A stretch of DNA of 46,451 nucleotides from Thermoproteota archaeon (lineage in GTDB: Archaea > Korarchaeota > Korarchaeia > B14-G2), in NCBI GenBank assembly GCA_003661385.1, contig QMWA01000002.1, positions 1 to 46,451 on the forward strand. Direction: 5' to 3'. The notes under the pieces are model-generated. The model had not been told where the DNA came from. It saw nothing but the letters and a program-made list of their open reading frames with translations, and made no database searches. Numbering within the stretch: position 1 is the first letter of the stretch; each line of letters opens with the position of its first letter. Made by a program: the position numbers and the translations under genes. Below, one piece after another: positions 5,106-27,641 of the stretch.

Positions 5106-5196
5106 TGGTGGACCGGGCGGGATTTGAACCCGCAACCTCCGCGATCACGTCTACATGATGCCAACGCGGCGCGCTACCAGGTTGCGCCACCGGCCC
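5106..5196 (-). tRNA. tRNA-Ala(GGC) with a roughly 14-nt intron near 37/38; CCA encoded
   Basis: G3:U70 pair (GGGCCGG/CCGGTCC). Anticodon stem CCGCG/CGCGG with U-GGC-A in the loop. The 3' ACCA is genomic. Confidence 0.75.
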
Positions 5197-6164: not shown

Positions 6165-8113
6165 CGTCTATCTAACCTATATGTCTCCAGGTTATATGGA
6201 GCAGTAGCCCATATAACACCTTTAGCTCGCATTAGATGCCATAGGTCTCTCGAAAGCTCCATGGCCTTCTGAGCCTCACCATGAACTACCAGTATCTGCT
6301 GGGGGGTAGGCCTCAGCCCACCAACATAGGATAGCAGCTGTAGCCTATCACAGTGACCAGATAGACCATCTATGGAATAAACTCTCATCTTAATGTCGAC
6401 AAGCTTCTCAGTACCATCTGGTAACCTAATTCTGACGCTTCGTGACCCATCTCTTATAGCTCGGCCAATAGTTCCAGCAACCTGATAGCTGACGAACACA
6501 AGCGTATTTCTAGGATCATCGCTTAAAAGCGAGAAGTAGAGGAGAGATGGGCCTCCAGTAAGCATACCTGAGCTAGCGAGTAGTATGCAAGGGCCCCCGC
6601 CAACAACATCTAGCTTATCTCTCCCTAGTGCAGGCTCAAAGTAGTCACTCAATATGGGAAGCTCGCCAGTCTCTTTGAAGCTCTTCCTAACAGAGGATGA
6701 TAAGAAGTTTATGTAGTTTGCATAGATAAGTGAAGCCTGGTAGGTTAACCCGTCTATGTAGATTGGAACTCTGGATAGCTCGCCCTGAGATATTGCCTTG
6801 TGAAGGATAGACATAACTTCTTGGGCTCTTCCAACCGAAAGAACTGGTATAAGGACTTTACCACCATCCTTAAGGGTCTTGTCTACTATGGAGAGCAGCT
6901 GCTGTTCTGCTGTAGCCTGGTCTCTACGTGCATCTCGTCTACCTCCATATGTAGACTCCATTATTAAAGTCTCTATTTTCTTGAAATGTGTAGGAGACGA
7001 GGACAGCAGCCGAACTTTCCCAAACTTAAAGTCCCCAGTGTATAAGAGGTTGTGTTTTTCTTTACCCAGCTCAGCAGTCAGCAGCACCATCGCTGAACCT
7101 AGTATGTGACCAGCAGGGTAAAGCGTCATCTTAACATCTGGCGCTATGTCTAGAGTTGTATTATAGTCGACAGGTATCGTCTGGATAACAATAGAGTCTA
7201 CCTCTCTCTCTGAGAAAAATGCTGGAGCACCTTCACGCTTACATACACTGAGATAGTCCTTAAACAGGAGAAGCATCAAGTCTCTTGTTGGCTGTGTGCA
7301 GTATATTGGGCCTCTATAGCCATACTTGATTAGCAGAGGAAGGCCGCCACAGTGGTCCAGATGAGCATGAGATATTATCACAGCATCTAGATACTCTGCT
7401 AAAAAGGGAAGCCTAGAGAATAGGGGGAACTTCTCTCTATAGGACCCCACGTTTATCCCACAATCCAACATGATAGTTGATGATGGCGTTTGCACAAGGA
7501 TACAGCTCCTCCCAACCTCTCTCGCTCCTCCAAGGAAAGTAGTGGTAATCCAGCGGTTATCTGACAGCACTGGCCTGTGTACCAGCGTTGCAGCATTAGA
7601 TAAGAAGCTACTTCTATCTGAGTAAGCTGACATGAGGACTTTACAGGAGTATTCTAGAGGGAGAAGAGCCTTTTTGGCTCGAGGTAGAATGTAATATACC
7701 TCAGGGAACCACCCTGTCTCTATTAGTAGTTCCTGGCGGCCATTTTCAGCTAGATATGAGTAAAGTTTAGGGCTCCACGTCAAAATAACAACCGTAGAAT
7801 CAGGAAGCATGTATATTGCCTTGAAAAGCTTCTCCCTCTGCGGGTCTACTTTGGCTGTGGCTGCTTTTAGATACCTTTCAACCTCCTCAGGTTTCTTAAG
7901 GACCGATTGCTCACATCTCACCACTATCTTCTTTCTTATGGACTTTGCAAGCGCAGCTACTTCACTGCGATTCTCAACAAAGTACTTCATATTCTTCGAA
8001 AAAACCTTCACAATAGCTCCTTCTACTATCACCTTAGTTATCTCAGCTTCAGGAGGAAAATGATCAAGAACCCTCCTCTCAATTTCAGGTACGGTAGCTG
8101 TGAGAGCTTCCAT
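6161..8113 (-). CDS. aCPSF1/FttA: KH-domain beta-CASP metallo-beta-lactamase ribonuclease (transcription termination factor)
   Basis: N-terminal KH region, HAHLDHCG motif, beta-CASP region. 650 aa, as is typical for aCPSF1. Confidence 0.9.
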   Translation of the reverse strand: MEALTATVPEIERRVLDHFPPEAEITKVIVEGAIVKVFSKNMKYFVENRSEVAALAKSIRKKIVVRCEQSVLKKPEEVERYLKAATAKVDPQREKLFKAIYMLPDSTVVILTWSPKLYSYLAENGRQELLIETGWFPEVYYILPRAKKALLPLEYSCKVLMSAYSDRSSFLSNAATLVHRPVLSDNRWITTTFLGGAREVGRSCILVQTPSSTIMLDCGINVGSYREKFPLFSRLPFLAEYLDAVIISHAHLDHCGGLPLLIKYGYRGPIYCTQPTRDLMLLLFKDYLSVCKREGAPAFFSEREVDSIVIQTIPVDYNTTLDIAPDVKMTLYPAGHILGSAMVLLTAELGKEKHNLLYTGDFKFGKVRLLSSSPTHFKKIETLIMESTYGGRRDARRDQATAEQQLLSIVDKTLKDGGKVLIPVLSVGRAQEVMSILHKAISQGELSRVPIYIDGLTYQASLIYANYINFLSSSVRKSFKETGELPILSDYFEPALGRDKLDVVGGGPCILLASSGMLTGGPSLLYFSLLSDDPRNTLVFVSYQVAGTIGRAIRDGSRSVRIRLPDGTEKLVDIKMRVYSIDGLSGHCDRLQLLSYVGGLRPTPQQILVVHGEAQKAMELSRDLWHLMRAKGVIWATAPYNLETYRLDRR

Positions 8114-18278: not shown

Positions 18279-18376
18279 CGGGCCCGGAGGGACTCGAACC
18301 CTCGACCCCCGGGTCTGGGTTTGAAACTCCCCCACTGCTAAGAGCCCGGTGCTCTACCCAACTGAGCTACGGGCCC
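18279..18376 (-). tRNA. tRNA-Lys(CUU) with a 24-nt intron at or near 37/38
   Basis: GGGCCCG/CGGGCCC acceptor. Arm CCGGG-CTCTTA[24 nt]A-CCCGG. The intron does not fit a strict BHB. Confidence 0.72.
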
Positions 18377-18399: not shown

Positions 18400-18408
18400 C
18401 TTAAAAAG
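18400..18408 (-). promoter_or_regulatory. TATA box for tRNA-Lys
   Basis: CTTTTTAAG on the minus strand, 24-32 nt upstream of the 5' end at 18376. Confidence 0.4.
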
Positions 18409-18415
18409 TTATTGA

Positions 18416-18513
18416 TGGACCGGGCGGGATTTGAACCCGCGACCTCCGCGTCTCTCAGGGTAGATGCGACACCGCTACCAGCGCGGCGATCTACCAGACT
18501 GATCTACCGGCCC
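18416..18513 (-). tRNA. tRNA-Ala(CGC) with two introns in the anticodon loop (32/33 at 18470-18480, 11 nt; 37/38 at 18452-18464, 13 nt)
   Basis: G3:U70, and acceptor, anticodon stem and T arm identical to tRNA-Ala(GGC). An embedded U-CGC-A sits at 18465-18469. Both introns give perfect or near-perfect 4-bp central helices (CCGC/GCGG and CUCG/UGAG). A single-intron reading gives Thr(GGU), which conflicts with G3:U70. Confidence 0.65.
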
Positions 18514-18535: not shown

Positions 18536-18545
18536 GTATAAATAG
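18536..18545 (-). promoter_or_regulatory. TATA box for tRNA-Ala(CGC)
   Basis: CTATTTATAC on the minus strand, 23-32 nt upstream of the 5' end at 18513. Confidence 0.4.
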
Positions 18546-25717: not shown

Positions 25718-25739
25718 CTACAGGTACTGGTAGCTAAGT

Positions 25740-25860
25740 GGGCCCGTAGCTCAGCCTGGGCGGTGGGGCAGTTAGAGCGCCCGATGTGTGAGGTGTAGCT
25801 GATAACCGGGAGTGTACTATACGTACACCGAGGTCGAGGGTTCAAGTCCCTCCGGGCCCA
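25740..25860 (+). tRNA. tRNA-Ile(GAU) with three introns (D loop 25760-25771, 12 nt; 30/31 25784-25797, 14 nt; 45/46 25813-25832, 20 nt)
   Basis: The exons rebuild GGGCCCG-TA-GCTC-AGCCTGGTTA-GAGC-G-CCCGG-CTGATAA-CCGGG-AGGTC-GAGGG-TTCAAGT-CCCTC-CGGGCCC-A. Central helices are GCCU/GGGC, CGCC/GGUG, and CGG(G)/(A)CCG plus a GUAC/GUAC inner helix. Confidence 0.8.
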
Positions 25861-25863
25861 CTG

Positions 25864-26280
25864 GTGTCGGCATTGAGGTCAGGGAAGTTGCTTATAATAG
25901 ACTCCAGCCTCCTTATGGCCATAGCTGAGAAGAGAGGCTTGAGCTTAGATAGATTGTTCGAAGATACGCTCTACAAGTTTGAGCTCGCAACCACATCCTC
26001 TGTCCTGAATGAGCTGAAGAAGATGGCATCCAGTAAAGGAGGAAAGGCCTTAAAGGCCAGAGCTGCCCTCTCAATTGCTGAGAAACTTAGGATAGTTGAT
26101 AGCGTGACAGAGGATGTTGACACAGATGTCATAGAAGTAGCTGCGAAGTTAAGAGGCATTGTAGCAACATGTGACTTGGAGCTGAGGAGAAAAGCTATGA
26201 GAAGAGGGGTGCCTACACTGTTCCTCAGGAGTAGAAAAAGACTTATGGTCAACAGCCCGGTGGGAGGCTACCTCCCTTAG
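25864..26280 (+). CDS. PIN-domain nuclease, Fcf1/Utp24-like (COG1412)
   Basis: LLIIDSSLLM (catalytic Asp) ... VATCDLELRRKAMRRGVPTLFL. It holds the conserved position upstream of rpo7-spt4-S24e-S27ae. The GTG start is 3 nt after the tRNA-Ile 3' end; in-frame TTG codons at 25873 and 25888 are alternatives. Confidence 0.75.
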   Translation: MSALRSGKLLIIDSSLLMAIAEKRGLSLDRLFEDTLYKFELATTSSVLNELKKMASSKGGKALKARAALSIAEKLRIVDSVTEDVDTDVIEVAAKLRGIVATCDLELRRKAMRRGVPTLFLRSRKRLMVNSPVGGYLP

Positions 26281-26294
26281 ATCGGGTGTAGAAG

Positions 26295-26831
26295 ATGTTT
26301 CACATAGCAACATTCAGAGATACAGTCGAGGTAGAGCCTCACGAGCTCGGGGAAGAACTCGATAAGGTCGTGTTAGAGAGGCTTAGAAAAAGGTATTCAG
26401 ACAAGTTCATTCCAGGAATAGGGTATGTTGTTGAGGTATTAGGTGCAAAGAGGGAGAAGCTTGGGAGAGCTTCTCCTTTCGACGGAAACATATATTTCAG
26501 AGTACTCTTTGAAGCGCTTGTGTTCATGCCTGAGCTCATGGAGATAGTTGAAGGGGAAATCGTCTCAGTAGTAGACTATGGGATATTCGTGAATCTTGGG
26601 GCTGTACGCGCCCTAGTGCACATATCTCAGCTTGCAGACGACTACTTCAGCTACGATGGAAAGAACCTAGTAGGGAAGAAAGTTACCTTTAGCGTCGGGG
26701 ATATTGTGAGGGGGCGCGTCATAGCCATATCTAAATCCCGTGAAAGAGGAGAGAAAGTAAGGCTTAGAGTCAATCTCACATGTAGGCAGCCTGGACTAGG
26801 CAAGGTAAAAGGTGAACAGAGTGAGGCTTAA
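26295..26831 (+). CDS. rpo7: RNA polymerase subunit Rpo7 (RpoE')
   Basis: Rpb7-like N-terminal domain plus S1 domain (GEIVSVVDYGIFVNLG). Confidence 0.9.
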   Translation: MFHIATFRDTVEVEPHELGEELDKVVLERLRKRYSDKFIPGIGYVVEVLGAKREKLGRASPFDGNIYFRVLFEALVFMPELMEIVEGEIVSVVDYGIFVNLGAVRALVHISQLADDYFSYDGKNLVGKKVTFSVGDIVRGRVIAISKSRERGEKVRLRVNLTCRQPGLGKVKGEQSEA

Positions 26832-27009
26832 GGCATGTAAGTCCTGTAGAGCAATAGTAATAGAGGGGGATAAGTGCAGCAGGTGTGGTTCTACACAGCT
26901 CACACATAACTGGGACGTGCTCTTTATATTACTTGACTCAGATAGGTCTGAGCTTGCTAAGAGGCTTGATGTAGACACGGAAGGAGCATACGCCCTGCTG
27001 GTGAAGTAA
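26812..27009 (+). CDS. spt4: transcription elongation factor Spt4 (RpoE'')
   Basis: KACKSCRAIV...CSRCGS...HNWDVLFILLDSDRSELAKRL...GAYALLV. GTG start. Confidence 0.85.
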   Translation: MNRVRLKACKSCRAIVIEGDKCSRCGSTQLTHNWDVLFILLDSDRSELAKRLDVDTEGAYALLVK

Positions 27010-27010
27010 G

Positions 27011-27331
27011 ATGGAGGAAGCCATAGAAGTAGTCAGTAAGGTTAGTAGGAAGTCAATTCCCAGGAGGGAATACGAGATAAAGGTGAAGCATGCAGGTAGA
27101 GGGATTCCGAGCAGAGCTGAGCTGAGGAAGATGCTGATACCGAATTTAAGGGAGAATCCGGACACGACTGTGATAGTCAAGATACTCGGTGAGACAGGGC
27201 TTCAGGAATCTAAAGTTATCGTTCATGCCTATGACGACAGAGGAGTAATGGAGCTCTTTGAGCCGGGTCACGTCCTTAGAAAGAACTTTCAGATAGAAGA
27301 GAAGGAGGGAGAGGAGGGTGACAAAGGGTAA
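27011..27331 (+). CDS. rps24e: 30S ribosomal protein S24e
   Basis: [25 protein letters not shown]...VIVHAYDD. Confidence 0.9.
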
Positions 27332-27488
27332 AAAGACCAGCGCATACAGATACTATAAGATGGAGGGGGGCAAGCTCATTAGGCTGAATAAGAAGTGCCC
27401 TAGATGCGGGAGCTTCCTAGCAGAACACAGAGACAGAAGATCCTGTGGGAAGTGCGGATACACGGAATTCAAGCAGACAGAAGCATAG
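27318..27488 (+). CDS. rps27ae: 30S ribosomal protein S27ae (56 aa; not in the ORF track)
   Basis: Hand translation gives ...[42 protein letters not shown]. The GTG start lies within GGAGGGTG and overlaps the S24e end. Confidence 0.8.
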
Positions 27489-27497
27489 CACCAATAA

Positions 27498-27506
27498 GCT
27501 TAAAAC
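27498..27506 (+). promoter_or_regulatory. TATA box for tRNA-Arg
   Basis: GCTTAAAAC, 23-31 nt upstream of the tRNA 5' end at 27529. Confidence 0.45.
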
Positions 27507-27528
27507 AACAGAAGCAGCTCTCTAAAGT

Positions 27529-27639
27529 GGGCCCGTAGCTCAGCTCGGATAGGCTCCTGAGGAGAGCGCCGAGGTTACGTGCAGGCCTGCGGAGAGAGTA
27601 GCGAGCCGGAGGCCGAGGGTTCAAGTCCCTCCGGGCCCG
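27529..27639 (+). tRNA. tRNA-Arg(GCG) with three introns (D loop 27551-27562, 12 nt; 29/30 27572-27584, 13 nt; 37/38 27593-27603, 11 nt)
   Basis: The exons rebuild GGGCCCG-TA-GCTC-AGCTCGGATA-GAGC-G-CCGGC-CTGCGGA-GCCGG-AGGCC-GAGGG-TTCAAGT-CCCTC-CGGGCCC-G. Central helices are UCGG/CUGA, GCGC/GUGC, and CUGC/GUAG. Confidence 0.8.
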
Positions 27640-27641
27640 TC

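Follow-up and report, generated by a model that had tools for sequence, protein, structure and literature searches.

The 98-nt tRNA gene on the minus strand at positions 18513-18416 of the window (i.e., the whole stretch of 46,451 nt that was analysed; the gene sequence was read directly) very likely encodes a tRNA-Ala with the anticodon CGC, produced by removing two introns. This reading relies on the alanine identity elements of the gene, on the uniqueness and conservation of the proposed split, on the isoacceptor context and on the presence of an endonuclease gene in the genome; the actual cuts, their order and the charging with alanine are predicted from the sequence. The host, an uncultured hot-spring-type archaeon, is represented by a 1.74-Mb assembly of 206 contigs rated 91% complete.

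Compared with the Rfam tRNA model RF00005, the gene scores 59.3 bits (gathering score 29) over model positions 1-71, that is, the whole model, and it displays a standard cloverleaf with the acceptor stem GGGCCGG/CCGGUCC, hence a G3:U70 wobble pair, and A73 as discriminator (at 18416). The two halves of the anticodon stem, CCGCG (18486-18482) and CGCGG (18450-18446), are separated by exactly 31 nt, which read, in order, C, UGGUAGCGGUG, UCGCA, UCUACCCUGAGAG and A. The original prediction had reported this 31-nt interval and had divided it into intron a (18480-18470), UCGCA (18469-18465) and intron b (18464-18452), all at positions that our analysis reproduces. The parts of the gene and its flanks are the following, in the direction of transcription:

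18537 to 18542, minus strand: putative TATA-like box TTTATA, 24-29 nt upstream of tRNA position 1 (read directly).
18481 to 18513, minus strand: exon 1, tRNA nt 1-32, with the acceptor 5' strand GGGCCGG (including G3), the D arm, the anticodon-stem 5' strand CCGCG and C32.
18470 to 18480, minus strand: proposed intron a, 11 nt, UGGUAGCGGUG, site 32/33, with a central helix of 4/4 pairs and an outer helix of 2 bp.
18465 to 18469, minus strand: proposed micro-exon UCGCA, 5 nt, tRNA nt 33-37, with the anticodon CGC; identical in the congeneric genome described below.
18452 to 18464, minus strand: proposed intron b, 13 nt, UCUACCCUGAGAG, canonical site 37/38, with the 5-bp anticodon stem as outer helix.
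18416 to 18451, minus strand: exon 3, tRNA nt 38-73, with A38, CGCGG, the variable loop AGGUC, the T arm, CCGGUCC (including U70) and A73.
18403 to 18407, minus strand: run of five T, 9-13 nt past the 3' end, a likely transcription stop.

No CCA is encoded at the 3' end of exon 3. The spacing of the TATA-like box is compatible with archaeal promoters, and archaeal RNA polymerase terminates at oligo-T; the TTTATA upstream and the five-T run downstream would thus fit a stand-alone archaeal transcription unit.

The enumeration of possible excisions covered every removal of 24 nt, whether as a single piece or as two, after which the loop has 7 nt, U33 and a purine at position 37. Scoring used the geometry that is standard for archaeal tRNA introns, i.e., a central helix of 4 bp and cuts placed 2 nt 3' of its strands; at the canonical site, this helix joins nt 32-35 to intron positions n-5 to n-2. 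The helix of intron b was scored after intron a had been removed. In the host genome, only the combination of 32/33 (11 nt) and 37/38 (13 nt) gave 4/4 pairs in both central helices, with CUCGCAA as the resulting loop. GCGG of intron a (18475-18472) pairs with CCGC at C27-C30 (18486-18483) as CG, CG, GC and CG, and UGAG of intron b (18457-18454) pairs with C32 joined to U33, C34 and G35 as CG, UA, CG and GU, that is, 4/4 once intron a has been removed and 3/4 before. The single canonical 24-nt excision reached 3/4 central-helix pairs, with the G.G mismatch that had been pointed out beforehand. Other two-intron splits (with the anticodons GGG, AGA, CGA and others) were rejected on account of their lower scores and their lack of recurrence in the congeneric genome. 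When the 31-nt insert was shuffled 3000 times, 198 shuffles permitted some split with 4/4 pairs throughout and 18 permitted one that also yields an NGC anticodon; the gene itself acquires an NGC anticodon, within a loop of 7 nt that has U33 and a purine at 37, only once both proposed introns are removed in silico.

Both proposed introns have a 3' bulge (U,G and U at 18471-18469, cut before the last base, for intron a; A,G and A at 18453-18451, likewise, for intron b). They lack an inner helix (h' = 0), and the 5' cuts fall in hairpin loops of 7 nt (a) and 9 nt (b). Judged from these features, introns a and b match the relaxed hBH/BHL (bulge-helix-loop) forms and not the strict hBHBh' form, which has two 3-nt bulges together with an outer and an inner helix. 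The original prediction had also held that a single helix rule governs the introns of the whole window. This rule stands for introns a and b, and in six further intron-bearing tRNA genes of the host (Thr CGU, Glu CUC, Gly GCC, Leu UAG, Leu GAG and Met) the same offset points to the expected anticodon, with 4/4 helices, but the rule does not extend to the introns of Ala(GGC), Lys(CUU) and Lys(UUU), which reach no more than 2-3/4 pairs; helix quality alone is therefore not decisive. The BHB registers are absent from the minimum-free-energy folds computed for the precursor and for the anticodon arm, and in the intermediate that has lost intron a the favoured fold lies 2 nt out of register, in a GAGAG repeat. 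Such folds usually disfavour BHB registers in bulged motifs and are decisive neither way.

The arrangement was then considered in the light of related genomes. The comparison set for the class comprised 40 species-level genomes, of which one other (G001, record 'MAG: Thermoproteota archaeon isolate Kor3') belongs to the same genus, and this genome was the sole match in an exact-pattern scan of genome contigs; the pattern scan of metagenome contigs gave no match to the arrangement. The orthologous insert reads C, UGGUAGCGGUA, UCGCA, UCUCUCCGGGGC and A. The exons of the two genes differ at 2/74 positions and the micro-exon UCGCA is unchanged; intron a shows one change, located in the bulge, and intron b is 1 nt shorter and mostly rewritten. 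The helix strand UGAG of intron b is CGGG in G001 (U to C and A to G) and still gives 4/4 pairs with CUCG, as CG, UG, CG and GC, a covariation that consists of two substitutions in an arrangement known in two genomes. Enumeration in G001 found, independently, the same single solution with 4/4 pairs in both helices, and the G.G mismatch of the canonical excision is present there too. The same mode of change was observed in other tRNA genes of the two genomes, with identical exons, diverged introns and conserved helices (e.g., UGAG to UGGG in the Thr(CGU) intron). As these results indicate, the Ala(CGC) identity put forward in the original prediction is supported by a split that is the unique best one in an unbiased enumeration in both members of the genus.

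The insertions might instead have broken the anticodon loop of a decaying, non-functional tRNA-Ala, with GCG codons read by Ala(UGC) through wobble. The splicing motifs are indeed minimal, and the host possesses an Ala(UGC) gene that is able in principle to read GCG. We nevertheless consider this improbable in view of the perfect cloverleaf and its 59.3 bits, the near identity of the exons with those of G001, an intron b that has diverged yet kept its helix, and the TATA-like box and oligo-T at the expected distances; moreover, many other tRNA genes of the host have equally small introns. Ala(CGC) could also be made by different cuts or in a different order, for example with intron b at 38/39 (loop CUCGCAU), or with excision of intron b from a relaxed motif, either first or independently. 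In the enumeration, the 32/33 and 38/39 pair scores 4/4 and 3/4, intron b already has 3/4 pairs in the unspliced transcript, and the endonucleases of lineages with non-canonical introns tolerate relaxed motifs (PMC4033280). The 38/39 variant, however, has no stacked anticodon stem left (h = 0) and carries a mismatch in both genomes, while retention of intron a places an 11-nt insert between C32 and U33 and so breaks the central helix of intron b, which makes such alternatives very improbable compared with the 32/33 and 37/38 cuts.

Returning to the Ala(CGC) reading, the identity of the tRNA body can be examined within the tRNA set of the host. As originally reported, G3:U70 is present, and no difference from tRNA-Ala(GGC) at 5106-5196 exists in the acceptor stem, the anticodon stem or the T arm. 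Three host tRNA genes carry G3:U70, namely Ala(GGC) (C2:5106-5196), Ala(UGC) (C126:921-1019) and the 18513-18416 gene. AlaRS recognises G3:U70 and not the anticodon. By comparison, the three threonine tRNAs of the host, Thr(GGU), Thr(CGU) and Thr(UGU), all begin with GCC and end with U73 (G1-C72, C2-G71 and C3-G70), whereas the gene studied here has G1, G2, G3:U70 and A73. The Thr(GGU) gene is complete at C25:6477-6564 (+), with a Thr-type acceptor 5' strand GCCGCGG, U73, the loop UUGGUAA and a 13-nt intron in the T loop; Thr(UGU) lies just downstream of it on C25 and Thr(CGU) on C14, and G001 likewise carries Thr(GGU), Thr(CGU) and Thr(UGU). A Thr(GGU) gene thus exists elsewhere in the genome, and no further tRNA with a CGC loop was found in the host genome, whose assembly, being 91% complete, does not prove that a second Ala(CGC) gene is absent from the species; this is the opposite of the gene content that the original prediction had named as evidence against itself. 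Note that the tRNA-Ala(UGC) gene (C126:921-1019, minus strand) has two introns of its own, in the D loop and in the T loop; G001 has the first of them unchanged and the second in diverged form.

Within the class, Ala(CGC) was recovered at 11 loci in four sister genera, all with the acceptor stem GGGCCGG/CCGGUCC, whereas the Ala(UGC) genes of the class use GGGCCCG or GGGCCGA instead of GGGCCGG. The sister-genus loops are UUCGCAA or CUCGCAC, and the genes are either intronless (e.g., L010, L011, L012, L018, L020 and L050) or contain one intron (L005, L008, L009 and L034). They share G3:U70, A73, the T stem GCGGG/CCCGC and the anticodon CGC with the 18513-18416 gene; their single introns are best placed at 38/39, and the 32/33 intron with its micro-exon has been seen only in the two genomes of the host genus. 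Among metagenomes, a search with the neighbouring aRF1 protein returned distant relatives alone (38-44% identity), one of which has an intronless Ala(CGC) gene ~2 kb downstream, an association too weak to be taken as synteny.

The gene finders give a different picture of the locus. With introns disallowed, ARAGORN called the gene Ala(agc), a call that we rejected as an artefact, AGC being located within intron a. With introns allowed, it gave Thr(ggt) with i(39,24), i.e., one 24-nt intron, which is the Thr(GGU) miscall that had been anticipated for a canonical reading, and the Rfam alignment puts the entire insert behind CUGGU. On sequences joined in silico, the same program called Ala(cgc) of 74 nt when both introns were removed, Ala(cgc) with a canonical 13-nt intron when intron a was removed, and Ala(cgc) with an 11-nt intron when intron b was removed. 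A threonine tRNA, or an alanine-charged mistranslating one, formed by excision of a single canonical 24-nt intron at 37/38 (loop CUGGUAA, with GGU on an alanine-type body), agrees with the ARAGORN call, with the Rfam alignment and with 3/4 central-helix pairs that use the anticodon stem as outer helix, but is extremely improbable, since G3:U70 and A73 would lead AlaRS to charge it and to insert alanine at the threonine codons ACC/ACU, the body is unlike that of the host's three threonine tRNAs, a proper Thr(GGU) is present in both the host and G001, the central helix has the G.G mismatch in both genomes, and the host would be left without Ala(CGC) although four sister genera yielded such genes.

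A finder limited to one canonical intron would credit the host with a second Thr(GGU) that is spurious and would leave out Ala(CGC), and the miscall would skew inferences on the tRNA set and the codon capacity of an uncultured lineage. Two other ARAGORN calls with introns allowed are worth recording. In the window, 25739-27641 (+) is given as a 'tRNA-Cys' with a 1806-nt intron, an artefact because the interval spans two separate multi-intron tRNA genes, Ile (25740-25860) and Arg (27529-27639). Elsewhere in the genome, the Thr(GGU) gene at C25:6477-6564 (+) is miscalled as Asn(gtt) with a 213-nt intron, a call in which it is fused with the downstream multi-intron gene for Thr(UGU) (C25:~6680-6790, +).

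Turning to how Ala(CGC) would be produced, the primary transcript may carry two protein-spliced introns of the bulge-helix-bulge family, in the relaxed bulge-helix-loop form, both within the anticodon loop. Cleavage by the splicing endonuclease of the host would take place 2 nt downstream of the two 4-bp central helices, and the three exons would then be sealed by an RNA ligase to give a 74-nt tRNA whose loop is CUCGCAA. The helix of intron a would borrow the 5' strand of the anticodon stem (C27-C30), and that of intron b would require C32 adjoining U33, stacked on a formed anticodon stem. The two motifs would be mutually exclusive because intron a occupies the anticodon-stem 5' strand that intron b needs in the stem, and the strict motif of intron b would arise only after excision of intron a, because C32 must be joined to U33. 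The predicted order is thus removal of intron a, refolding and removal of intron b; from the geometry, this order is plausible, with the chances about evenly balanced. That splicing is obligatorily ordered and coupled to refolding, in a lineage with a single fused two-domain endonuclease, is a more tentative proposal, to which we give somewhat less than an even chance; if true, the gene would offer a compact natural test case for the way in which one enzyme handles minimal, mutually exclusive bulge-helix-loop substrates. Both the splicing order and the substrate limits of the endonuclease are addressable with a transcript of only 98 nt. The sole tRNA-intron endonuclease found in the host genome is encoded outside the window by a 367-aa ORF (C7:17460-18563, minus strand, equal to L032:1477-2580, minus strand) with one N-terminal PF02778 domain and two PF01974 domains, both of the catalytic type.

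It should be noted that closely spaced introns in archaeal tRNA genes, as well as the miscalls that they cause, are already known, and that the 18513-18416 gene adds an instance. Thermoproteales and other archaea, Korarchaeum among them, are well known to have multi-intron tRNA genes with relaxed motifs (PMC4033280, PMC4090602). According to the passages of these two papers that cite Sugahara et al. 2007/2008, Thermoproteales and other Thermoproteota/TACK members, Korarchaeum cryptofilum included, have tRNA genes with as many as three short introns of the BHB type, placed at canonical as well as non-canonical sites, and these genes have in common with the present one such short introns, the relaxed hBH/HBh'/BHL motifs and cutting by EndA (predicted here). 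The tRNAscan-SE 2.0 paper reports that in some genes the introns are so close that the second BHB motif forms only once one intron has been taken out, for which the search iterates, and that many non-canonical introns were formerly mis-annotated as canonical (PMC8450103); closely spaced introns are treated there as a class in general, whereas we describe a single gene of that kind. The present gene differs from the multi-intron genes of the Thermoproteota/TACK archaea in that both introns lie inside one 7-nt anticodon loop and the entire anticodon is on a 5-nt exon; its introns (11 and 13 nt) are near the minimum size and its lineage is an uncultured genus. The gene adds a clean example, conserved across two species, of an anticodon on a 5-nt exon between near-minimal introns with mutually exclusive motifs, and the general knowledge of archaeal tRNA introns is left unchanged by it. 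A phylogenomics preprint on Korarchaeota does not mention tRNAs. With regard to the enzyme, reviews of 2014 linked the single fused two-domain endonuclease with few non-canonical introns, naming Korarchaeum as the exception, and an alpha2-type enzyme together with many non-canonical introns was reported among archaea for Korarchaeum alone (PMC4033280). The host genome is likewise full of non-canonical and multiple introns despite its sole 367-aa two-domain endonuclease.

Some further observations concern neighbouring introns and the insert itself. The adjacent tRNA-Lys(CUU) gene (window 18279-18376, minus strand) also has a 31-nt insert in the anticodon region (29 nt in its G001 orthologue), for which no single 24-nt excision gives 4/4 pairs; its best-scoring split, which is speculative, would place adjacent introns at 37/38 and 38/39 around a one-base exon. 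The 14-nt intron of tRNA-Ala(GGC) (5106-5196, minus strand) has 2/4 central-helix pairs at the usual offset and forms instead a plain 6-bp hairpin spanning both splice sites, and in G001 the 3' part of this intron is different. In the 37 C fold of the whole precursor of the 18513-18416 gene, GGUAGAU of the D arm is paired with AUCUACC of intron b, a pairing that we take as incidental because the complementarity is lost in G001 (UCUCUCC). Finally, the D arm and intron a (window 18495-18489 and 18479-18475) share a CUGGUAG whose GGUAG complements the CUACC that opens intron b (18465-18459); this complementarity, which drives the alternative fold at 37 C and is not retained in G001, is probably incidental, or else records how intron a came about.
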